From the IMG/VR virus record IMGVR_UViG_3300037153_000087, positions 1 to 56,700 of that record: a stretch of 56,700 nucleotides of DNA. One strand, given 5' to 3'. The translations under genes and the position numbers were made by a program. Below, piece by piece: positions 5,336 through 47,340 of this stretch. Position 1 is the first letter of the stretch. Every line of letters starts with the position of its first letter. The DNA is from a virus (lineage: Duplodnaviria; Caudoviricetes). The notes below the pieces were generated by a model. That model did no database searches, was not told where the DNA came from, and saw nothing but the letters and a program-made list of their open reading frames with translations.

Positions 5336-5354
5336 CCGCTCCCAGGAGGTGCTC

Positions 5355-6764
5355 ATGCTAGAGCGTTACACGTTGGAGCCCGTTGGCTCCTATTGGACCC
5401 GCGCTGCTCAATACGATCTGTGGCGCGAGGTCGAGATCTACGCTGCTAAGGTCAAGGGTGCGCCTGACGGCATCCTACGTGCGTTGGTCGACACCCCGGT
5501 TCCCGCAATCGAGGCGATCGAAGCCGAGGAGCGACTCGTGCGTCACGATGTGGTCGCGTTCCTGAACATGTGGCGTGAGAACATGTCGGTCGACGTCGCT
5601 GCCTGGGTCCACAAGGGTATGACCTCGTCGGACCTGGTCGACACCGCCAACGCGCTTCGGCTGGCAGCGGTCACGGACGAGATCCTCACCCAAGCGGGCA
5701 AGCTGGAGTACCTGCTGGCCAAGCACGCTATCCACCACTGGAAGACTCCGAGGGTAGCGAGAACCCACGGGCAGAACGCCCAGGCCAGTAGCTGGGGCTA
5801 TCGCGTGGCAGACTTCACGATAGCCCTGGAGCGCGTCATCAGCATACTTCGGTACGCCAGGGCAGACGCCTGCGTGGCCAAGATCTCAGGACCGGTCGGC
5901 GACTACCGAGATTCGAGTCTCGCGATGGAGGTCGCGTTCGGTCGCGACATGGGCCTCGAAGCCGCGTTCAGTGCGACCCAGGTCGTCAGTCGGGATCGGC
6001 TGGCTACCCTCATGTTCGCTCTGTCGCAGGTAGCGACCGTCATCGAAGCGATCGCCCTGGAGGTTCGACTCTCCTCGCATTCGCAGGTCGGCGAGCTGAG
6101 CGAGGGATTCGGCGAGCAGCAGGCAGGCTCGTCGGCCATGCCGCACAAACAGAACCCGATCATCAGCGAGCAGCTTACCGGCCTCGCCAAGATCGTTCGC
6201 GCCCAGGTGGTTCCGATCCAGGAGGGGGTGGCGCTCTGGCACGAGCGCGACATCTCGCATTCCTCTGTCGAGCGGATCGCCGTGCAGACGGCTACCGTCG
6301 TCACGCACTTCATGTTGGTTCGGTGCATCGAGCTGTTCCAGGGCCTGAACGTCCACACCGAGATCATGCAAGCCAACCTCGACTCTGCGCGCGACGCCAC
6401 CCTCTCCGCGAGAATCAAAGACCACCTGATTGAGGAGGGCCTGCACCCGAACACGGCGTGGGACGTCGTCCGCGAGGCTGCCTCGATCCCGCACCCCGAC
6501 CTGATCGCCAAGACCAATCAGGTCCTGCACCAGCACGGGTACGGCGTTCGGGTTCCCTACTTCAATGACGAGCCGACTCCTCACCATGAGCACGTGCTCA
6601 AGCACATGAACACGCTGCGTCGCAGGCACGAGCCGAGAACCGTCTATTTCGTCCCCCGGATGGCCGACCTCGACGGACCGACACAGGAGGAGCTGGCCAA
6701 GGGTATCAGCCTTGACGAGTTCCTGCGCGACATCCAGATGGGGGATGGCGATGGGGGGAACTGA
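5355..6764 (+). CDS. purB: Adenylosuccinate lyase (phage-encoded PurB)
   Basis: RHDVVAF, H.G.TSSD..DTA, RTHGQ, KISGPVG, GSSAMPHKQNP signature and WHERDISHSSVERI; AGGAGG RBS. Confidence 0.93.
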   Translation: MLERYTLEPVGSYWTRAAQYDLWREVEIYAAKVKGAPDGILRALVDTPVPAIEAIEAEERLVRHDVVAFLNMWRENMSVDVAAWVHKGMTSSDLVDTANALRLAAVTDEILTQAGKLEYLLAKHAIHHWKTPRVARTHGQNAQASSWGYRVADFTIALERVISILRYARADACVAKISGPVGDYRDSSLAMEVAFGRDMGLEAAFSATQVVSRDRLATLMFALSQVATVIEAIALEVRLSSHSQVGELSEGFGEQQAGSSAMPHKQNPIISEQLTGLAKIVRAQVVPIQEGVALWHERDISHSSVERIAVQTATVVTHFMLVRCIELFQGLNVHTEIMQANLDSARDATLSARIKDHLIEEGLHPNTAWDVVREAASIPHPDLIAKTNQVLHQHGYGVRVPYFNDEPTPHHEHVLKHMNTLRRRHEPRTVYFVPRMADLDGPTQEELAKGISLDEFLRDIQMGDGDGGN

Positions 6765-11912: not shown

Positions 11913-12164
11913 ATGCAGAACTTCCACCGTCCCGTTTCCCTCGTCGGCAACGCGCGCTTCGCTCGCCTGCACCGCGAGGACGTCGGGCACTGGGTCTTCA
12001 AGCACATCGAAACGGGCGTCGGCTTCGAGTTCGACGGCCAGTACGGCGAGGCGATGGCCGCCCTGGAGATGGACTTCTTCGAGCAGGGCCTGCCCGAGGG
12101 CGTGTACGAGCTGGACCTCCGCGATGACCGCGTCAAGGACCCCACGAACCTTTACGACATCTGA
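11913..12164 (+). CDS. Hypothetical acidic protein
   Basis: Strong RBS; followed by a gagcccccg...cgggggctc hairpin (~12173-12205). Confidence 0.75.
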   Translation: MQNFHRPVSLVGNARFARLHREDVGHWVFKHIETGVGFEFDGQYGEAMAALEMDFFEQGLPEGVYELDLRDDRVKDPTNLYDI

Positions 12165-12211
12165 GCACAGAAGAGCCCCCGACTCCGATTCAGGAGCGGG
12201 GGCTCAGCTAT

Positions 12212-12309
12212 GTAGCCAGGGGGGTAGCCATCCCCATCGCCCAGGCGTCCGCCGAATGCCTACGGAAACCCTGCGGGCTAGGGGGGTGGCTATACTGCGG
12301 GCTACCCCC
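12212..12309. repeat. 12-bp-periodic TAGCC/GGCTA repeats, candidate clt (TraB recognition) locus
   Basis: CTGCGGGCTA at 12271 and 12295, GGGGTGGCTA at 12283, inverted GTAGCCA at 12212 and 12224; immediately 3' of the traB-like gene. Confidence 0.45.
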
Positions 12310-12326
12310 TCTGACCGGCCAGGCTG

Positions 12327-14090
12327 TCATTCCGGAGGGCTCACGAGCGGCACCAGCTCTCTGGGGTCCGGAGTGGCCAGACGGTAGGTACCCGCCTGGT
12401 CATCCCGGATGATCTCGATCCCCTTCCGGTTGCGCAGCCGCTTGATGGCGTCGTAAACCTGCTTGGTCTCCAGCCGAAGACCCGTTTCGATCTCCTGCCG
12501 AGTGACCTCGTCCCGGTGCCGGAGCAGGTTCAGAACCCGAGTGTCAACCGTCAGCGGAACGCCACCCTCCCCCCAGGGAGAACCATCAAGCCCGACCTTG
12601 TAGTCGGCCAGCCTGGCGACCTCGCTGGCCAGGTCGGAGTCACTGATGTACGGTGCCTTCCGGGGGATCGGCTTGCGGTATTCCTCGTTGCGGATCAGGT
12701 ACTCGCCAGGCCCAGCCAGCAACGTGTTGGGGTCCCAGCCCTTAGACTTCCAGTCCTGGCCGAACGCGTATTGCGCGTGGGCTGCCTCCTCCAGCCGCGT
12801 GCAGATCCGGTTCTTGTAGTTGGTCCGGCTGTCCGTGCTCCCGCCGAAGGCCGCAGCGCTGGGTGCCTGGGTCGCCTCTAGCAGGTAGACGCCGAACGCG
12901 CGATAGAGCCGCGACGCCTCCGCGTTCAGCTCCGGCAACGTCGGTAGACCGTCTACCTTCCACTTCTTCGAGGTCAGCTCGGCCATCTCGTCGACCACCA
13001 GTAGGATGTACGGGCCAAACTCCTCGTCCCAGCTCCGGATACCCTCCCGGTTCATGATCTCCGACCGCCTGTCGGTCTCCTGGTCGAGCCAGTCGAAAAC
13101 GTCGCGAGCCTGGTACCCGTCCTTGGCCAGGGTGACCATCAGCGGGCTGACCGGAGCCAGCTCCACCCCCTTCTTCATGTCGATCCCCAACACCGCCATA
13201 CCCCGCTGGACCGCAGCGAGAATGAACTGGTTGGTGATGTTCGACTTGCCGTTGCCGCTCGTCCCGAGGACCAGCGTGTGACGGTCGAGCAGCTTCACGA
13301 GCGTGGCCGCGTCGTCCTCGTCGGGACCGAGGTAGACGGGGTCGGACAGGTCTCCAGCCGTGTCGGGCACGTACGCGATGACGCTCTCGAACGTGCGCTT
13401 AGCGGTGTACTTGACGATGAGCTGGTTGTCGGCCACACCGTCTTCGAGCGCGTACTTGCCAGTCCCCGCGAGGGCACCCGCGACCCTGCCCCAGTTGAGC
13501 CGGAGCTTGGCCCGATCGAGGCCAGGAGGGCAGGCGAGAACCATGCGGTAGCCGTTCTTGATCGGCTCCACGAACACGCCCAGAAGCTCCTGCTTGAACA
13601 GCTCCCAGACCGCCGTACGGATGGCCGTCTCCTCCTGCGTGTGACCCGTCAGCATGGGCTGGTACTCGGGCGTGAGCCGCTTTTCGAGCGTGAGCAGCGC
13701 GGTTTGCGCGCGGATCTCGCCGATGGCGTAGCGCTGGAGCTTGATCTTCTTGTCGAGGTCCTTCGTGGACGAGTGGTGCTCGAACCACAACCGCATCCCG
13801 AACGCGCTGGCCGAAGCTGCCAGCCAGGCCCAGAGGCTGACCACATCGACACCGAACCAGGTCACCGCCCCCGCATAGGCGAAAGCTCCGGCAAACCCGA
13901 ATGCGACTGGCCAACCCTTCTTAAACCCGATATAGGTGGCTCCAGCCGCAGCCGCGTACCCCAACATGGCCATGCCCTCCGGATTCGGAGAGTTGATGTG
14001 CATGGCGAGACCCGCCGACAGGATGAGTGTCGACGGGCCAATGGAGTACCCGACCCTCTTCAGGGCCTGGAACCTCGCCTCTCTGGTCAC
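12327..14090 (-). CDS. FtsK/SpoIIIE-family DNA translocase, TraB-like
   Basis: N-terminal TM helices; Walker A GTSGNGKS; IDMKKGVEL; Walker B LVVDE; ATQ.P; C-terminal winged helix. Confidence 0.85.
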   Translation of the reverse strand: MTREARFQALKRVGYSIGPSTLILSAGLAMHINSPNPEGMAMLGYAAAAGATYIGFKKGWPVAFGFAGAFAYAGAVTWFGVDVVSLWAWLAASASAFGMRLWFEHHSSTKDLDKKIKLQRYAIGEIRAQTALLTLEKRLTPEYQPMLTGHTQEETAIRTAVWELFKQELLGVFVEPIKNGYRMVLACPPGLDRAKLRLNWGRVAGALAGTGKYALEDGVADNQLIVKYTAKRTFESVIAYVPDTAGDLSDPVYLGPDEDDAATLVKLLDRHTLVLGTSGNGKSNITNQFILAAVQRGMAVLGIDMKKGVELAPVSPLMVTLAKDGYQARDVFDWLDQETDRRSEIMNREGIRSWDEEFGPYILLVVDEMAELTSKKWKVDGLPTLPELNAEASRLYRAFGVYLLEATQAPSAAAFGGSTDSRTNYKNRICTRLEEAAHAQYAFGQDWKSKGWDPNTLLAGPGEYLIRNEEYRKPIPRKAPYISDSDLASEVARLADYKVGLDGSPWGEGGVPLTVDTRVLNLLRHRDEVTRQEIETGLRLETKQVYDAIKRLRNRKGIEIIRDDQAGTYRLATPDPRELVPLVSPPE

Positions 14091-14983
14091 GGCGTGTTGA
14101 CACCGCCCTTCTTGATCTCACGTCGGATGGCCGCCTCCAGCGACCCCCGGTTGACGTCCGGACGCTCGGTCACGATCGTGTTGAAAACCAAGTCCTTGGG
14201 AGCACCCTGGGCGAGCAGCTCGCGAACACGCTCGGCCATGCTCGGCGAGCTGCTCGAGCCGTTCGAGCCCGTGTTCGGGCCGGTGAGAACGCTGGTGTTC
14301 GGCTGCTCGACGAGCTGCTCGGTGTGCTCGTTCGAGCTGCTCGCGAGCTGCTCGGCACCCCACACGTCGCGCCTGCTCGCCTCGATCGCGAGCTTGAGGG
14401 CAACCGCCTGGTCGTCGGCCATGGCCACCTTGCGCAGGACCTCCGCGACAGCGAGCTGAGCGTGGGCCTTGCTGACCACCGCATTGACCCAAGCCTCGTG
14501 CTCAGGGTCGAGGTCCCGGTCGACGAACTTCATGATCGCGAGCCACAGGACCTTGGCGAACAGGCTGACAGCGGCACCGACGACGGCCAACGGGATGTTG
14601 TCAAGCACCACCCCATGCCAGCCGATGAAGAACATCGTGACGACGAGCAGAGCCCAGCCGAGGTTGCGCGGGAACCCGCGCTTCTTGGGGTCGAAGCGTG
14701 CCTTCCACTCCAGGATGAGGCAGATCGCCCAACTGATGTCGAACAGGAGAGCAGCCAGGAACCCGACGCCTCCGCCGAGAAGTTGGCCGATACTGACGGT
14801 CGACCAGGTGATCGCGATGAGCGTGAGGATGCCGACCAGACCGAACGCAAGACGCGTGGCCAGCTCGTCCCAGTTGCGCGGGATGATGGGGATCTTCTCG
14901 GTCTCCGTGACCATGACGGTCTCGGTACGGTCACCGATCGTAACTTCCTTGGGTACCTGCACGGTACGGACGTTGAACTTCAT
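14087..14983 (-). CDS. SpdB-like plasmid spread/transfer membrane protein
   Basis: PR.WD, WST.SIG.LL, FD..W...L..EW..R motifs; 4 TM helices, coiled coil and HTH-like tail; coupled to the traB-like gene. Confidence 0.65.
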   Translation of the reverse strand: MKFNVRTVQVPKEVTIGDRTETVMVTETEKIPIIPRNWDELATRLAFGLVGILTLIAITWSTVSIGQLLGGGVGFLAALLFDISWAICLILEWKARFDPKKRGFPRNLGWALLVVTMFFIGWHGVVLDNIPLAVVGAAVSLFAKVLWLAIMKFVDRDLDPEHEAWVNAVVSKAHAQLAVAEVLRKVAMADDQAVALKLAIEASRRDVWGAEQLASSSNEHTEQLVEQPNTSVLTGPNTGSNGSSSSPSMAERVRELLAQGAPKDLVFNTIVTERPDVNRGSLEAAIRREIKKGGVNTP

Positions 14984-15037
14984 GAGGACCTCGCCTGTCG
15001 CTTGGCCAGCAACTCCGTTGCTGGGAGGGAAGAACCT

Positions 15038-15153
15038 ATCTTATCATGGGATCTGTCCGCGTGTCAAGTATTAACTACGGACCGTTACGGTGTGACGGGA
15101 GTGACTACGCGTCGTAGCAGGACTTGCCAGGGTGTCACGCCTCATGATAAGAT
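15038..15153. promoter_or_regulatory. Divergent class-2 promoter pair with a central palindrome
   Basis: Minus TTGACA-N18-TAAGAT (15067-15038); plus TTGCCA-N18-TAAGAT (15124-15153); ACCGTTACGGT at 15081. Confidence 0.7.
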
Positions 15154-15184
15154 CGTAGCACAACGACAGAAAGGGGCTCCTACG

Positions 15185-15544
15185 ATGGGACGTCCTCAGA
15201 CCAAGGCCCGACTGCTCGCGTTCTTCGACAAGCGGATCGGCCAGGTCGTCACCCTCGACGAACTCCAGCGCGAGTTCCCCGACCTGACCTCGGACCAGCT
15301 CCGGGTGGGCGTCGGCAACCTGCGCAACTCCCCCTCGAACGAGTCGGGTGGATTCGACATGAAGACCTCTCTTCAGGTCGTCGCCCGTGGGAACGCCTGG
15401 ACCTGGCGACCCGTTCAGGCCCTCACCGCCACCTCCCCCCAGGAAAGCCAGAAGCGTTGCTTCGAGGAGGTCGGCCAGACCCGCGACGGGTCGATGATCA
15501 TCCAGGCCGACGACGGCACGCTGTGGAAGGCGGTTGAGCTGTGA
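15185..15544 (+). CDS. Hypothetical protein, possible winged-helix DNA-binding protein
   Basis: LLAFF....GQVVTLDEL...L...Q....V.NLR pattern; GAAAGGGG RBS. Confidence 0.6.
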   Translation: MGRPQTKARLLAFFDKRIGQVVTLDELQREFPDLTSDQLRVGVGNLRNSPSNESGGFDMKTSLQVVARGNAWTWRPVQALTATSPQESQKRCFEEVGQTRDGSMIIQADDGTLWKAVEL

Positions 15545-30685: not shown

Positions 30686-31828
30686 ATGGGTGGTAAGATC
30701 AGCGTCGTCGTCGGCGGACAGTTCGGGTCGGAGGCCAAGGGCGCGGTTGCCGGGTTCCTCTCGTCCGACCGCAACTGGTGGACCCGTCCGGCTCGACAGA
30801 CGGTCTGCGTGAGGGTCGGTGGCCCGAACGCTGGACACACGGTCTACGGGAGCTGCCCGAGCGACTGCGACGAGGGCGGAACCCCGGCTCACGAGCTGGG
30901 TCACCCCTGGCGACTCCGCCAGATCCCGGTCGCTGCCGTCACCAACCCGGAGTCCCAGCTCCTCATCGCGGCTGGCTCCGAGGTGGACATGTCGGTCCTC
31001 CGGGAGGAGTGGCGTCAGCTCAACAGCGCGGGTTACCAGCTCAGGGGTCGGCTCAACATCGACTACAGCGCGACCCTGCTGGAGGAGCGGCACATCACGC
31101 AGGAGCAGGGCGACGGGCTCAACGGTAGGATCGGCTCGACGGCCAAGGGCATCGGAGCCGCGAGGGCAGACCGAATCTGGCGCAAGGCGAGCATCATGCG
31201 CAGCCAGTACGACGTCATGAGGGCGATGGGTATCCTGCTCGTCGACTCGACCACCATGCTGACGATGCGGCTCGAAGCGCAGAACCACGTGATCATCGAG
31301 GGCACCCAGGGCTACGGGCTGGGCCTGCACACCGAGTTCTATCCGCAGGTCACGAGCGGCAACTGCCGAGCCATCGACTTCCTGGCGCAGTGCGGCATCA
31401 GCCCCTGGTCGGCGATGGTGACCGACCTCGACGTGTGGGTGGTCGCCAGGACCTACCCGATCCGGGTCGCTGGCAACAGCGGTCCGCTGGCCGACGAGAC
31501 CTCGTGGGAAGAGCTGGGTCTGGAGCCCGAACAGACCACCGTCACCAAGAAGACTCGGCGAGTCGGCGGATGGGACGGCGAGCTGGTTCGACGCGCGGTG
31601 TGGGCGAACGGCGGAGGCTGGAACGACCATGTCAAGATCGCGCTGATGATGGCCGACTACAAGATCCCTGGGCTCAAGGGGATCCGCGACAGCAACGACA
31701 TCAACAACCAGGATTACGATGCTCTCCAGAAGCTGGTACGCGAGGTCGAGGGGCAGACCGACGCCCGTGTGGGCCTGGTCGGAACTGGCCCGACGTCCAT
31801 TCTCGATCTTCGCGGCTGGAACCTCTGA
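30686..31828 (+). CDS. purZ: N6-succino-2-amino-dAMP synthetase (PurZ/PurZ0-type PurA paralog)
   Basis: GGQFGSEAKG with Ser replacing the PurA catalytic Asp; GPNAGHT; GST.KG.G; EGTQG; PIRVAGNSGPL; TTVTKK.RRV; compact archaeal-type length. Confidence 0.88.
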   Translation: MGGKISVVVGGQFGSEAKGAVAGFLSSDRNWWTRPARQTVCVRVGGPNAGHTVYGSCPSDCDEGGTPAHELGHPWRLRQIPVAAVTNPESQLLIAAGSEVDMSVLREEWRQLNSAGYQLRGRLNIDYSATLLEERHITQEQGDGLNGRIGSTAKGIGAARADRIWRKASIMRSQYDVMRAMGILLVDSTTMLTMRLEAQNHVIIEGTQGYGLGLHTEFYPQVTSGNCRAIDFLAQCGISPWSAMVTDLDVWVVARTYPIRVAGNSGPLADETSWEELGLEPEQTTVTKKTRRVGGWDGELVRRAVWANGGGWNDHVKIALMMADYKIPGLKGIRDSNDINNQDYDALQKLVREVEGQTDARVGLVGTGPTSILDLRGWNL

Positions 31829-32366: not shown

Positions 32367-33260
32367 ATGATCGTGTACTTCGCTGAGCCGATCGACCAGG
32401 ACCAGGCCAATTACGTCGAGATCGAGTTCCGGACCACCATGCAGAACCACCTCCTGCGGACCGGTGCCAGCGTCTACCGTCCGGCAACCGCCTGGAACCT
32501 GGCGAGCATCGACCGTCACACGAGCGCGGTGGCCGAGAAGGTCAACCGAACCGCGCTGGCCGAGGCCGACCTCCTGGTCGCGCGCCTGCCCGAGGGGACC
32601 GCCAGCGTCGGCGTTCCGATGGAGATCGAGTACGCGACCCGCGTGCTGGGGATTCCCGCGATCGTGGTCGGCGTGGGAGGCGTGGCGCTCCAGGCCAACC
32701 CGATGGTCTGGCTGGTCGACGGGCGCAACATCGGCAAGTTCGACCGGATGTACGAGATGGTCGCACGCGAGAAGGCCAACGACGTCAAGCCGCTGTACCA
32801 CGTGGGCAGCCTCAACCCGAGGTCCTACCCTGGCGACGCGGGCATCGATCTGGTGGCCAACGCCGACACGGTCATCCCGGCTCACGGGACGGCGAGGGTC
32901 CCGACCGGTAACCACTTCCAGTTCCCTCAGGGAGTGTGGGGCTGGATCGTCGCGAGGTCGAGCACGTTCGAGACCTACGGCGTGCAGATCCTGCCGGGCA
33001 TCATCGACGAGGGTTACACGGGCGAGCTGTTCGCGAACGCGCTGAACGAGTCGGACCAGCCGAGGCTGATCAAGGCGGGTAGCCGACTCTGCCAGATCAT
33101 CCTGTTCGAGAACAAGACGGCGCAGTACGCGCCGATCCAGGTCGACAAGATCGAGGAGCGCGACCGAGGCAGCAACGGGTTCGGGTCGACCGGTGCCAAC
33201 GGTCATTTCCTGAGCAACGGTCCCGACTCGATCAAGGTCATGACTGGGGAAATCTCCTAA
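32367..33260 (+). CDS. Fusion of nucleoside 2-deoxyribosyltransferase/dNMP-glycosidase-like domain and trimeric dUTPase-like domain
   Basis: N-terminal VYFA.P...ADLLVA...SVG..MEI.YA; C-terminal DAGIDL, RSS, GIIDEGYTGE, R.CQ and RG.NGFGSTG. Confidence 0.85.
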   Translation: MIVYFAEPIDQDQANYVEIEFRTTMQNHLLRTGASVYRPATAWNLASIDRHTSAVAEKVNRTALAEADLLVARLPEGTASVGVPMEIEYATRVLGIPAIVVGVGGVALQANPMVWLVDGRNIGKFDRMYEMVAREKANDVKPLYHVGSLNPRSYPGDAGIDLVANADTVIPAHGTARVPTGNHFQFPQGVWGWIVARSSTFETYGVQILPGIIDEGYTGELFANALNESDQPRLIKAGSRLCQIILFENKTAQYAPIQVDKIEERDRGSNGFGSTGANGHFLSNGPDSIKVMTGEIS

Positions 33261-36734: not shown

Positions 36735-37772
36735 CTATTCGACGAACATCACGCTGACGCGTGCGTTCGTTACCTTCACCGGGCTGGCCGCGTGTGATCT
36801 GACACGCACCCGGAGCTTGCCGTTCTTGCGGAGGTTGCCCACCGCTGCGAAGTGGATCCGGTACGAGTCGGTCAGGATGTTCGGACCGATCTTGCCCGAC
36901 TCCATGAGCCTGTCGACGGGAGGGTTGACCGTCTTGTCGTAAACGTACTCCGCCGTGTCGCAGTCGATCACGTCGCCGAGCTGTGCCCCCTCGACGTCGG
37001 CACCGAACTCCAGCCAGTACAGGGTCGGCTCACCCTTGAGGATCGAGGGGTTCGCACCCTCGTCCGGGTGGACCTTGGTCGGGTCGGCGTACTCCGTGTC
37101 GAACAGCACATCGACCCACTCGTTGGGGTCGCATTCGGTCGGGCCTGCCTGGCTCGCTCCGAACGATGCGTAACCGATCACGTCTTCCTCCTGAGTGGGT
37201 GGTGCGGGCTTGGCTGGGGGCTTCGGCTGAGGCTTGGCCGCGTCCTTGGGGGGACGCTTGAGCGCTCCGCTCTTGACCATGTTGTAGACCGGAGTGCCAG
37301 GGCAGTCGGTGTACGTGAAGTCCCGATGACCGTAGACCGCCGACCGCAGCGAGTAGTCGTCCATCAGCCATTCACGAAGCCGAGCCCAGGCTCGTAGCGC
37401 GCCTTCGGTCGGCTGCTCGTTCGGACCGAGGCCGAATGTGCACGATACGTAACGGCTGTTACCGCCCTGGAGCTTGCCGGGTGTGGGGGCCTCCGCTGCC
37501 TGCTGATGGTTGACGCCACGACCTTCGAAGATGTAGTCGTGCGGGCACGCGAAGTAGGCGTATCCGACGTCGACCCAGCCCTGGTTCTTGTGCATGTTGC
37601 GGGTCGAGCGCCAGTACTCGAAGCACCCGTCGTGACCCTTGTCTCGGACCAGGTTACGGAGCCGGAACCCGGAGTCGTAGTGGGCGATCAAGCCCAGGTT
37701 GGTGGTTGCGCCTGCGGCTGGGGTTCTGCCCCAACCCAGTTCGCTTCGGCTTACGAACCTTGCGGGTGCCAT
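36735..37772 (-). CDS. Endolysin, N-acetylmuramoyl-L-alanine amidase (PGRP-like) plus C-terminal domain
   Basis: SR..LGW, AHY, GW.DVGY, FEGRG, GHRD..T.CPG; Pro/Lys linker. Confidence 0.88.
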   Translation of the reverse strand: MAPARFVSRSELGWGRTPAAGATTNLGLIAHYDSGFRLRNLVRDKGHDGCFEYWRSTRNMHKNQGWVDVGYAYFACPHDYIFEGRGVNHQQAAEAPTPGKLQGGNSRYVSCTFGLGPNEQPTEGALRAWARLREWLMDDYSLRSAVYGHRDFTYTDCPGTPVYNMVKSGALKRPPKDAAKPQPKPPAKPAPPTQEEDVIGYASFGASQAGPTECDPNEWVDVLFDTEYADPTKVHPDEGANPSILKGEPTLYWLEFGADVEGAQLGDVIDCDTAEYVYDKTVNPPVDRLMESGKIGPNILTDSYRIHFAAVGNLRKNGKLRVRVRSHAASPVKVTNARVSVMFVE

Positions 37773-43640: not shown

Positions 43641-44107
43641 TAGGCACCTGCACCCTGCGTGGCCTTAGCCAGGCCCTCGGCGTGAACGTTCAGGTTGAGG
43701 TTCGTGCCGTTGGTGGTCACGGACAGGTCGTAGTGGAACAGAGGAATGATCGCCGAGTCGGCCGAGCCGGAATCCGGCTTATAGCAGACCAGAGCCTTGA
43801 CGAGCGCGTTGTTGGACGCGCCACCCGCGTTGCTGAACACGATGGGGGTGTTGGCCGTCAACTCGGCTTCGTTGTTGGTGTTGTCCTGGCTGGCCGACAC
43901 CCCGGACAGGGTCTGGCGAGCGTAGTTCGTGAAGTTGGCTTCGGTGTTGGCAGCCGTCCAGGCCGCAAGGGTGTTGTGGTCGTCCAAGGTGTCGTCGGCC
44001 TGAACCGAGTCCTTGAACAGCACGACGATCAACGAGTCGCTCGCTGCTGGCAGCCCAGCGTAATACCGCCAGATGCCCTTAGCGACGTTACAAACGCGAG
44101 TTGCCAT
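43640..44107 (-). CDS. Conserved actinophage tail-associated protein
   Basis: NVAKG...YY; EANFTNYAR..L; position after the tape measure. Confidence 0.7.
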   Translation of the reverse strand: MATRVCNVAKGIWRYYAGLPAASDSLIVVLFKDSVQADDTLDDHNTLAAWTAANTEANFTNYARQTLSGVSASQDNTNNEAELTANTPIVFSNAGGASNNALVKALVCYKPDSGSADSAIIPLFHYDLSVTTNGTNLNLNVHAEGLAKATQGAGA

Positions 44108-47100
44108 TACTTGGTTCCCCTCCAGCGCTTACCGCTCTTAGACTCGTAAGCCACGATGTATTCGACGATCTCCTTGCCGACCTGACCCTTGGTAGTGCCC
44201 AACGGAACCTTCGGCTCGATGTAATAGGTGTTGCCTCCGCCGAGACCGGTGTCGAGCTGGTCCCGAGTGAATACGTATTCCGGCTCGCGCAGTCCGTTGT
44301 ACGCCAGAGTGTAACCAGGCTCCAGTACGCCACCGTTGTCGAACTTCAGACCGTATCGGCGAGTGAACAGCCCGTTGGTGGTTCCGCGAGCCGCTGCCCC
44401 CAGGACGACGCCAGCCGAACCGCGCGACTCGACGTTCATGTTGCCCAGGGTTCCCGCCATGTGGCCGACCCCCGCGTCCGTCACGCCGACCGTGAAGCCG
44501 GAGCGCAGGTTTCGAACCATTCCGTCCGGACCGCTGTTCGCGCCGAACGCGTGCGTGGAGTACAACCGGGAGTACGGGTTCCGACCTCTAATTACGTTCT
44601 GGATGGCGCTCATGAAGCCCGAGCAGTCGTACCCGCCAGGACCGACACCGCCCCACACGTAAGGCTTTCCGGCTTGTGCCTTCGCGAAGCGGGTGGCGGC
44701 TGCGACCCTGGGTCCTCCGACGCCCGACTCGACCTTGGACTCGATCCAGCCGACCACCTTGTCGGCGATCCACTTCGGAACCGCACTGATGATCTGCTTG
44801 ATGATACCGCCACCCGGAACCGCTGCTCCAAAGATCTTGTTGATGAGCGATCGGGCACCCTTGGCGACGTTGCCGATCGTGAAGTCCTTGACACCCTGGA
44901 TGAAGTCCCCGATGATACCGCCGAACGCGAAGTTGCCCGCGAATCCGGGAACGATTCCACCTCGTGCGAAGGCCAGACCCTCGCCCCCCAGTGCGTTGGG
45001 ACCGGTGAGCCAGCTCCGGACCGCTTTGGGGCCACCCGATCGGGCGATCGCGTTCGCGCTGTTGACGAACCCTCGACCGACCGCCTTGGTGAACTCGGGA
45101 CGGAAGATCGACTCACCAGGCGACACCGCAGCCAGGAGCTTGTCCTTACCAGGCGCGTAACCCGGCATGACACCACCCTGCGCGAACGTCGGCAGTGAGG
45201 GCAGTCTGGCCGAGATGCCGACGAACGAGGCCAGGTTGTCGACCAGCTTCTTGATGCCGTTGTTGTAGATCCCGATCACGAAGTTGACCGGAGTCTTGGC
45301 GATCGAGATTACCTTGTCCCAGATCCGCTTAATTCCGTCCACACCGGACTTGAACGCGTTCGGGATCGTCTGAGTGATCGTCTTGGCCAGGAAGTCGAAG
45401 ACTGGCTTGATGACCGAGTTCCACGCGGTCTTGATTACCGAGCCGACCTTGTTCATGATCGGCGCGACGATCGTGTTGTGGAACCACAGGAACCGGGGTC
45501 CCAGCGTGTTGAGCAGGAAGTTCTTGACCGCCTCGAACGCGGGCTTGATTACGTTGTTCCAGACGGTCTTGATGATGTTGCCGATAAGAGTGAAGTACGG
45601 CTTAACGATGTTGTTCCAGAGCCAGGTGATCACCGGGACCAGCACGGTCTTAATGAAGTTCCACAGGGCGGTGAACGCGGGCTTGATGACGTTCTCCCAC
45701 GCGAACTTGACCGCTGCCTGGATACCCTTCCATGCCGCCTGGACGATGTTCCTGAAGGTCTCCGAGTTGTTGTATGCGTAAACGATCGCCGCGACCAGCG
45801 CGGTAAGGATCGTGATGACCAGACCGATCGGGTTCGCCTTCATGGCCGCGTTCAGCAGCCACTGAGCCGCAGCCCAGAGCTTGGTGCCGATGGCCACTGC
45901 CTTGCTGGCAGCCTCGAAGATCAGCGTCTTCGCAGCCGAGCCAGCCGCAGCGAGTCCGGTCTTGAGATAGGCACCCGCCAGGCTCGACAGGTTGGTGACG
46001 AGCGTAACCGTGTGGCTGATGCCCGACGCCAAGGTCGAGCCGAAGTTTCGGACCGCTGCACCAGCCTTGGCCGCAGCCCCCGCGTTCTCGCCCAGCTTGG
46101 CGGTTCCACCGATCAGGCCCTGACCGAACTTAAAGGCCGCAGCCCCAGCTCCGACCATGCCCATGCTGACACCCTTAACGATGCCAATCAAACCGGACAG
46201 CTTGCCAGCGAGCGCCACCCCCACCAGGGAGAAAGCAATAAACTGGGTTGCCGCCCCTTGGACATCAGGAGGCAGAGCATTGATTAGCTTGACCAGCGCG
46301 CCCAGAGGACTGAGCAGCAGGGGCAGTACGTCGACGACATCGCGCAGGATCTGGTTCAAGAGGGCGAACGTCTGAGCAGCCTGCTGCTGGCCGCCAGCCG
46401 ACTGCGCCCACTGATTGAACTTGATGGTCATCTGTTCTAGCGAGTCCAGCACCCCGTCACCGGAGGTCTTGGCGTTGCTGAACACGGCGACCAGGCCCTG
46501 AATCGCGTTCTTGCCGATGGTACCGAGCTGGCTTAGTGTCTGGCCTGCCTTGGTGGCCCAGCCGGACAGCTTGCGGGCACCCTCCTCGGAGTTCAGGAAG
46601 GCAGCAGCGGCCTTGACGCCGTTTACCGCCCACATGCCCATGCGCTCCGCCAGGGGGGTACCTAGGTGCACAAGGTTTCCGATGGCCTTCAGAGCAGGCT
46701 GCACGACGGGTACGAACTGCGCCATGACCCGAGAGGTCATCTGGAACACGGAGTTGACTACGCCTCGGGCGAACGGGGTCTGGCCGAAAGCGAAGGCTTC
46801 CTTGGCTCCTGCGTTGAGGGAGGTGGCGACGTCGAGCATTCCGCGCTTGGCGGTTGGGAGGATGTTCTTGGCGAGCGGGTCGATCTCCTTGGCCAGACCA
46901 GCGAACGCCCGGTTCTGCGTGGCCTGCTGGATACCCTTAAGCTGGCCGATTACGCCCTTGGACTCCTTGACGAACGCCTGGGCGTTGGGGGCGAGCTTCT
47001 TCATCGCCTCTTCGAGCGCCTTAGCGTCGCCCTCGGCTACCGCCGACATCGCCTCGCCCATGCCCAGTAGGGCGACCTTAGTGACGAGCGAAGCGGTCTT

Positions 47101-47340
47101 GACTCCCGCCATTGCAGCGGGCAAAGCGACGATTGCGCCAGCCGCAGGAGCGACAGCAGCAGTGAGTGCCGTTGCCGCCCCAGCGACCGACCCGATGGCC
47201 GCAGCAGCCGCCCCACCCTTGGCGATCTTGGTGGTTACCGCGTCGAACTTCTCTGCGGCCTTGGCTGCGCGGTTGAAACCCCTCTCCATGGGAGTCAGGT
47301 CGACACCCAGACGGACCAGGAGGTTACGAATCGTCGCCAT
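44107..47340 (-). CDS. Tape measure protein with C-terminal NlpC/P60 domain
   Basis: Ala/Gly-rich helices; W-spaced repeats; FA.GG motifs; GKPYVWGG...YDCSG...H. Confidence 0.92.

Follow-up and report, generated by a model that had tools for sequence, protein, structure and literature searches.

Whether a tailed phage can encode its own version of the machinery by which Streptomyces plasmids pass double-stranded DNA (dsDNA) between cells is the question raised by a two-gene operon in the IMG/VR virus record IMGVR_UViG_3300037153_000087, a 56.7-kb stretch of DNA with an estimated completeness of 79% (CheckV), which as a whole is referred to here as the window. The two genes, termed MEM (a membrane protein of 298 aa) and ATP (an ATPase of 587 aa), had been taken in a first-pass annotation for a plasmid-type conjugation module, SpdB-like plus TraB-like, residing within a tailed phage. 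To our knowledge, Streptomyces plasmids are the only well-studied systems in which dsDNA is moved between cells by a single FtsK-like pump and is then spread across cross-walls via Spd proteins. Judged by sequence comparison, the operon is a real and conserved cassette of an SpdB-type and an FtsK/Tra-type gene, representing a phage-borne variant of the Streptomyces machinery for dsDNA transfer and spread. What is new is an apparently distinct, mainly phage-borne pump lineage whose gene is conserved alongside that of an SpdB-type protein, in phages both with and without detectable integrases.

The operon and its two predicted proteins

Within a long run of plus-strand genes, the two open reading frames (ORFs) stand alone on the minus strand, with plus-strand flanks at 11913-12164 and 15185-15544, and the stop codon of MEM overlaps the GTG start of ATP by 4 nt. 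The GC content at third codon positions (GC3) is of the coding type for both genes (0.87 for MEM and 0.85 for ATP), and the arrangement is that of a two-gene operon opposed to its neighbors, as had been proposed.

The product of ATP belongs to the FtsK/SpoIIIE superfamily, as it scores 50.6 bits against Pfam FtsK_SpoIIIE (PF01580; gathering cut-off 24), and in PHROGs it falls under "FtsK/SpoIIIE-like protein". All 23 of the 23 family sequences retain, without change, the Walker A sequence GTSGNGKS, the Walker B residues DE, and a Gln-Pro motif (Q408, P410). In the AlphaFold2 (AF2) model of ATP (pLDDT 81), four helices at the N-terminus are accompanied by a linker helix and an alpha/beta domain, besides the RecA-like motor and a winged helix formed by residues 515-571. 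This agrees with the earlier description of a protein with transmembrane (TM), FtsK ATPase, and winged-helix parts, and the model contains the putative membrane anchor, single FtsK-like motor, and C-terminal winged helix characteristic of Tra/TraB proteins. As modeled, this architecture also fits FtsK and does not discriminate TraB. The closest solved relatives of the motor by both sequence and fold are TcpA (87 bits) and the FtsK motor (78 bits), with Foldseek E values of ~1e-17 and TM-scores of 0.64-0.69, while EccC/EssC and HerA are well behind. The ATP family profile matches pIJ101 Tra at 63.9 bits, and the relatives P0021 and P0023 match HTH_Crp_2 at 26-27 bits. An identity as a type VII EccC/EssC protein was considered and rejected, since ATP has a single motor domain versus two to three in tandem and occupies a separate clade in the motor tree.

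MEM contains four hydrophobic segments, and its AF2 model (pLDDT 76) places the TM helices within residues 38-154, followed by a single long helix (160-216) and, at the C-terminus, a bundle of three helices, so that the four-TM protein of the first-pass annotation is recovered. Across the family, the N-terminal tail is conserved and is followed by four TM segments and a long helix rich in Ala and Arg; a linker that varies leads to a small bundle of helices at the C-terminus. Although MEM had no match in the local Pfam library at E<=1 and its PHROGs family (phrog_35187) carries no functional annotation, its family profile aligned with pIJ101 SpdB at an hhalign probability of 90.9% (E 1e-6, 111 columns across the TM domain, MEM residues 53-163). 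In addition, the SpdB_N family PF27080 (Pfam 38.1) is tagged on 20 of 75 profile relatives and 8 of 66 single-sequence relatives of MEM, and its protein-atlas neighbors include clusters with PF27080 and PF27079 as well as a cluster titled "Protein spdB"; these two families are known from precomputed tags on relatives and from atlas names, which makes the evidence for MEM itself indirect. Together with its usual position upstream of FtsK-type motors, these matches uphold the designation "SpdB-like", and MEM is, as far as profile comparison can tell, a remote homolog of pIJ101 SpdB. Kinship with DUF2637 (PF10935), to which the membrane protein at the SpdB position of a pIJ101-type plasmid (L047) is assigned, was rejected, as MEM had no Pfam match at E<=1 and gave an hhalign probability of 7.2%; DUF2637 compared to pIJ101 SpdB itself yields 0.2%. 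A fold search with MEM found no solved counterpart (best E 2.2), and a complex prediction for the membrane-proximal parts of MEM and ATP returned no verdict and counts neither way. Three MEM relatives (P0038, P0042, and P0043) are fused at their C-termini to a T5orf172/MUG113 (GIY-YIG-like) domain.

Distribution of the gene pair and phylogeny of the motor

A search with the ATP profile identified 30 IMG/VR and 22 metagenome loci, among which there were 40 non-duplicate strong matches, 32 of these being assessable (at least 900 nt of upstream sequence). A MEM ORF is located directly upstream and on the same strand in 23 of the 32. ATP has 18 close relatives at 45-80% identity, 10 of which come from contigs of exactly the same length as contigs with MEM relatives, so that the two genes are probably on the same contigs there. 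Of the 30 ATP-bearing viral records, 5 have terminal repeats and 5 are proviruses; Phage_portal was found in 20 (17 above the cut-off) and a tyrosine integrase in 8. Among the 12 records with a completeness of 90% or more, 6 have such an integrase. The operon is thus found in further phages as an adjacent and co-oriented pair, a recurrence on which the first-pass annotation had made its reading depend. The window terminase matched just 1 of the 30 records, and weakly so, and therefore these phages are not close kin of the window phage. The searches that succeeded were alignment based: a scan of viral contigs with ATP as a single protein gave zero matches, as did a DNA search of a phage collection with positions 12000-15200.

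Two side observations concern MEM in viruses. On the 115-kb viral contig L034 (11071-13086), the gene after MEM encodes an NlpC/P60 plus SLT peptidoglycan hydrolase, and a gene for an FtsK-type ATPase comes next. Wall-cutting enzymes of this kind are often present in transfer systems. Divergent MEM-family genes also occur in the IMG/VR loci L035-L046, motor-free in 11 of 12, and several have terminase and portal genes within a few kb.

Outside of viruses, the MEM profile recovered 30 bacterial loci from Streptomyces, Kitasatospora, Frankia, and relatives as well as three small plasmids. An FtsK-type motor follows MEM on the same strand within 5 kb in 21 of the 23 bacterial loci whose downstream sequence is long enough and in all three plasmids, and these motors derive from at least three lineages (C1, C3, and C48). 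The cellular loci also contain a divergent GntR/UTRA regulator and a DUF927 protein, a layout that matches those of pIJ101 (korA divergent from tra-spdA-spdB) and pZL12 (a GntR gene divergent from a series including a membrane protein, 72c, and the FtsK-like 71c). By these sequence criteria, MEM is a regular component of actinomycete dsDNA transfer and spread loci. Pairwise BLAST of ATP against the large genes that follow MEM in the three small plasmids detected no clear homology; with the iterated motor profile, two of these plasmid ATPases proved to be of the FtsK type. The closest cellular relatives of ATP itself were found in 11 of the 401 Streptomyces genomes searched, in conserved islands of small unannotated genes, one of which includes an integrase and none of which has a MEM match. 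The neighbors of the chromosomal P0023-type ATPases are likewise mostly unannotatable, an integrase and a JmjC protein being the sole ones recognized.

Several of these cellular and plasmid loci have peculiarities of their own. L004 encodes two C1 FtsK-type ATPases, and L008 has an AICE-Tra-type gene (AICE, actinomycete integrative and conjugative element) 8 kb upstream of MEM and a C1 motor; both may be tandem or composite elements. In L005, L010, and L015, a 480-aa lyase with 27% identity to the PurB-like protein of the phage is located ~2 kb upstream of MEM, which is most likely the host purB beside a shared insertion site. The best matches to ATP in the plasmid database are five Streptomyces "plasmids" (records H61-H65, 129-132 kb; L095), one of which also contains a type I-E Cse2/CasB gene. 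They are similar in size to phage Gilgamesh (129 kb) and may be phage-plasmids.

For the phylogeny of the motor, a motor-domain profile was made by iteration and two IQ-TREE "quick" trees were computed, with rows thinned by hand (left out were duplicate EccC loci, EccC domains 2 and 3 in the second tree, and some near-identical members of clades). In the first tree (68 rows by 279 columns), the window is placed in a fully supported clade, the successive sisters of which are P0020, P0021-23, Gilgamesh together with a 130-kb plasmid, and then, weakly, pIJ101-type Tra. In the second tree (80 rows by 272 columns), the window clade belongs to a lineage of 33 rows (SH-aLRT 94) that also takes in other viral contigs, the P0023-like genes of chromosomes, Gilgamesh, and the 130-kb plasmid. 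EccC, the small AICE Tra proteins, canonical TraB, pZL12 TraA/C48, and C1 are all separate from this lineage, and the chromosomal FtsK clade includes the FtsK-like proteins of mycobacteriophage LittleE and Bacillus phage SPG24. These trees suggest that ATP represents a distinct lineage, mostly of phages or proviruses, apart from both chromosomal FtsK and EccC. The comparison among TraB, FtsK, and EccC proposed in the first-pass annotation has therefore separated ATP from the latter two and revealed no specific affinity to TraB. The grouping with non-conjugative FtsK that would have spoken against that annotation was not observed.

Operon signals and genome context

The coordinates of the operon, its protein domains, and nearby signals are listed in Table 1. 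The spacer between MEM and the divergent gene (14984-15185, ~200 nt) contains two divergent sigma70-like sites, 2 seen versus 0.4 expected, one of which is a candidate for the operon's own promoter that had been claimed earlier. Both sites (15038-15153) have an identical -10 sequence, TAAGAT, inside the inverted repeat CTTATCATG / CATGATAAG, and this repeat may be an operator that the operon shares with the divergent 119-aa gene at 15185-15544. The latter has no Pfam match, its sole match being phrog_32114, the function of which is not annotated.

In Streptomyces plasmids, a clt locus consists of short repeats clustered at the 3' end of tra or past it, to which the winged helix binds. Downstream of ATP, the candidate site resembling such clt loci includes the motif GGGGGTRGCY, which occurs three times in the whole window, in each case within 12220-12309, and was defined from those same three copies. 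A sister sub-clade (L096, L098, L099, L100, L102, and L104) contains 2-3 direct and then 1-2 inverted 8-mers with a GGGTC core (GGGGTCTC, GGGGTCCC, GGGTCGGA) in the first ~150 nt past the ATPase stop, a motif that was picked post hoc. L099 and L104 agree in this repeat motif as well as in their predicted recognition helix, which is identical, though L099 otherwise resembles L098.

Table 1. Features of the operon, the adjacent signals, and selected window genes.
Feature	Position	Strand	Details
ATP, FtsK/Tra-superfamily ATPase gene, 587 aa	12327..14090	-	GTG start
Four N-terminal Gly/Ala-rich helices, aa 3-106, putative membrane anchor	13773..14084	-	AF2; moderate hydrophobicity
RecA-like motor, aa 250-497	12600..13343	-	Walker A GTSGNGKS at 13242-13265, Walker B DE
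C-terminal winged helix, aa 515-571	12378..12548	-	AF2 H-H-H-beta-hairpin; weak Pfam HTH matches
MEM, SpdB_N-type membrane protein gene, 298 aa	14087..14983	-	
Four-TM domain, aa 38-154	14522..14872	-	pIJ101 SpdB-homologous part; hhalign, hydrophobicity, AF2 helices
Ala/Arg-rich helix, 57 residues, aa 160-216	14336..14506	-	AF2; conserved in family alignment
C-terminal three-helix bundle, aa 249-292, possible HTH	14108..14239	-	AF2; atlas neighbors with PF27079 HTH_SpdB_C
Sigma70-like promoter candidate of the operon	15067..15038	-	TTGACA-18-TAAGAT, TG-extended, 10/12; consensus match alone
Second, divergent sigma70-like site	15124-15153	+	
GC-rich hairpin, terminator-like, between convergent genes	12166..12212 (hairpin 12197..12175 on -)		~130 nt past ATP stop
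Repeat cluster between ATP stop and terminator, candidate clt-like site	12215..12310	.	imperfect direct and inverted repeats
PurB-like lyase	5349-6764	+	
dUTPase/DCD-family protein	32367-33260	+	

The element that carries the operon is a tailed phage with a Streptomyces-like host. The window encodes a terminase, a portal, a major head protein, and a tape measure protein, in keeping with the tailed-phage setting first described. Other genes encode an amidase (36735-37772, ~21 kb away from the operon), a family A polymerase, a PrimPol, and a helicase. A PurZ-like adenylosuccinate-synthetase homolog at 30686-31828(+), with 112 bits, is, together with the PurB-like and dUTPase/DCD-family genes, consistent with a genome containing 2-aminoadenine (Z). 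The tape measure protein, at 44107-47340(-), has as its top PHROG match phrog_971, labeled "endolysin" (322 bits), beside many tape-measure families, and may contain a lytic domain.

Proposed function and rival explanations

Of the functions that can be envisioned for the operon, the one we favor, with a confidence just short of even, is the pumping of phage DNA across hyphal cross-walls. ATP would assemble into a ring-shaped, FtsK-like pump that its four N-terminal helices hold in the membrane. The C-terminal winged helix would select the DNA to be pumped, and the repeat cluster that follows the ATP gene may be the site at which it does so; MEM would contribute the membrane or pore partner. 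The most likely use for a phage in mycelium would be to bring its replicating DNA across cross-walls into adjoining compartments, and perhaps between touching hyphae, which would enlarge the infected territory without virions. The sequences show the homologies, the architecture, the intact catalytic motifs, and the recurrence of the gene pair in many phages; in this scheme we infer that MEM and ATP act together and that phage DNA is the substrate, as well as the direction and the purpose of transport. It is conceivable, albeit doubtful, that many actinophages, including integrase-less ones like the PurZ-encoding window phage, routinely move naked replicating genomes between compartments using an SpdB/Tra-type pump and a cis site near the pump gene. 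Such a system would be virion-independent, comparable to the movement proteins of plant viruses, and distinct from plasmid-prophage conjugation.

A number of results weigh against cross-wall pumping. The backbone of the motor tree, through which the ATP lineage is linked to TraB, pIJ101 Tra, C1, and pZL12 TraA, is a polytomy; the pIJ101-type rows moved between the trees, as L047 went from a weak sister to no firm place and pIJ101 Tra, present in the second tree only, grouped with C1. Forcing the 33-row lineage together with FtsK cost 44.5 lnL (p-AU 0.0415), a marginal rejection for a group that was named after viewing the first tree. Against the NCBIfam TraB equivalog NF041214, ATP scored 19.5 bits with a cut-off of 800, but with this model even a genuine pIJ101-type Tra reaches just 49.6 bits (AICE Tra, 34.4; Gilgamesh, 54.4), and it was therefore discarded as too narrow a membership test for ATP. 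For the label "TraB-like", the separation from FtsK and EccC is in favor; the architecture, which FtsK shares, the equivalog score, and the position relative to plasmid Tra in the trees do not establish it. Nor is the pairing universal, as no MEM was detectable upstream in 9 of the 32 assessable ATP loci and no FtsK-type motor was present within 5 kb downstream in 11 of the 12 viral contigs found via MEM. The latter result means that phages also carry SpdB-type proteins alone, and from the two together it follows that neither protein strictly needs the other.

The accessory parts of a plasmid-like transfer system are similarly elusive. No GntR-type regulator (KorA/TraR) was found in the window. 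The repeat cluster is a lead rather than a finding, as its statistics are weak: in an exact 8-mer repeat test of 35 loci, the median control fraction was 0.97 and that of the window was also 0.97; a post hoc GACCC count stood out in 8 of 24 loci, the window not among them (0.53); and a mismatch-tolerant test gave p<=0.05 in 2 of 29 loci, a set outside of which the window falls. The absence of an integrase and of a plasmid Rep had been part of the earlier argument, and it holds insofar as tyrosine integrase, serine recombinase, and resolvase families have no match in the window, which is not conclusive for a record that is ~79% complete; no Rep turned up either, in a record of that completeness and with plasmid Rep families not searched for. 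A search of the available literature found no description, test, or experiment on any phage SpdB-Tra pair. Lastly, a lytic phage kills its own compartment quickly, and therefore the gain from spread is unproven.

The same features permit other explanations. Since the FtsK structural match to ATP is as good as that to TcpA, the operon could serve septum- or spore-directed DNA handling, in which a SpoIIIE/FtsK-like pump loads phage DNA into spores (a carrier state) or clears or redistributes host DNA, with no hyphal spread. Phages of sporulating hosts often have FtsK-like genes (Bacillus accounts for 125 of 190 records), and the available portions of Streptomyces phage papers name such genes in passing and link them to host development. 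This scenario is nonetheless unlikely, as the FtsK-like proteins of Bacillus phages and mycobacteriophages cluster with chromosomal FtsK, whereas the ATP lineage does not, and its partner MEM is of the SpdB type, associated with plasmid spread. Distinctly unlikely is an exclusion or competition device, i.e. a membrane pair that blocks or expels incoming phage, plasmid, or AICE DNA or disturbs resident conjugation systems, given that the winged helix, which is conserved, and the nearby repeats point to recognition of the DNA of the element itself and that no defense-system match turned up, the PADLOC library not having been searched. It would, however, explain why PHROGs classes ATP under "moron, auxiliary metabolic gene and host takeover", why the operon forms an oppositely oriented island with its own candidate promoter, and why either gene occurs unpaired in some elements.

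A hitch-hiking remnant, in other words a piece of an AICE or plasmid that recombination brought in and that has no role in the phage, could be envisioned from the occurrence of the same protein families in AICE/plasmid-like loci and from the integrase-containing island in which close cellular ATP relatives are found. We regard this as very unlikely in view of the intact catalytic motifs in 23 of 23 sequences, the 18 relatives at 45-80% identity, and the retention of the pair in 23 of 32 loci, down to ~30% identity and in related records that include ones with terminal repeats. Highly improbable, finally, is a helper for entry or lysis, since neither a sequence-reading winged helix nor a DNA motor is needed for lysis and the operon is located among early-type genes, far from the amidase gene. 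According to the available parts of Thoma et al. 2015 (PMC4447253), SpdB2 does form pores and gives lysozyme access to the wall, so that an SpdB-type pore former and an ATPase might draw the genome in or, late in infection, permeabilize the membrane like a holin (Tra = KilA, with pock-like growth arrest).

If virion-free genome spread within the mycelium proves true, it would change the view of plaque formation and of the containment of phage by hyphal compartments, as well as that of receptor-based resistance and phage-mediated gene flow in filamentous bacteria. Should the module serve exclusion or spore carriage instead, it would still represent an uncharacterized and widespread actinophage function.

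Comparison with known transfer systems

The claim in the first-pass annotation that a Z-genome phage that is also conjugative would be a new lifestyle is overstated. The plasmid-phage pZL12 already has a functional tra locus (Zhong et al. 2010 as cited in the available parts of PMC3583192 and PMC4487206), and it was already speculated in the accessible text of Thoma et al. 2015 (PMC4447253) that phage SpdB2 homologs spread phage DNA. That one-line speculation has now become a defined, testable, and widespread gene set. A link to phiC31 was sought without success, as phiC31 had no match to the MEM, DUF2637, or motor profiles and its published SpdB2 homolog could not be connected to the MEM family.

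At the level of the motor, the best sequence and fold matches of ATP are TcpA, the coupling protein of the conjugative Clostridium plasmid pCW3 (PDB 6o1w-6o1z) and the FtsK motor (2ius, 6t8o), a likeness that is limited to this domain and does not cover the N-terminal helices, the winged helix, or the MEM partner. Gp10 of Streptomyces phage Gilgamesh ("FtsK-like DNA translocase", 30.6% identity) and the ~130-kb Streptomyces plasmids share the 33-row lineage with ATP; unlike in the window, gp10 is followed rather than preceded by a membrane protein, of 155 aa, and resides in a 129-kb genome with a tyrosine integrase. With pZL12/phage ZL12 (GQ919031), the window shares the combination of a tailed-phage genome and a Streptomyces-type tra locus containing an FtsK-like ATPase and a membrane protein, although pZL12 also has ParAB, a GntR regulator, and an integrase/recombinase, and its ATPase 71c is of another lineage (C48). 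Its membrane protein pZL12.73c was compared with the MEM family and rejected as a member.

The closest parallels in organization come from plasmids. In pIJ101 of S. lividans (NC_001387), as in the phage, an FtsK-type ATPase (Tra/KilA) adjoins the four-TM SpdB in one operon. The order is reversed in the phage, with the spdB-type gene first, and SpdA, KilB, and KorA/GntR are absent there; identity is very low, ATP is not a robust sister of pIJ101 Tra, and the carrier is a tailed phage. For pSVH1, the available parts of Thoma et al. 2015 (PMC4447253) report that traB is essential for transfer, that pocks and intramycelial spread need spdB3, spd79, and spdB2, and that SpdB2 is a pore-forming four-TM protein, able to bind both DNA and peptidoglycan, that copurifies with TraB, the pump being hexameric and its SpdB2 partner oligomeric. 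Canonical TraB (NF041214) forms a clade separate from ATP. Even so, the phage operon resembles the TraB-SpdB2 system described in those parts (PMC4447253) in each element of its predicted design: a membrane-anchored pump, a C-terminal winged helix, a four-TM Spd partner, and translationally coupled genes.

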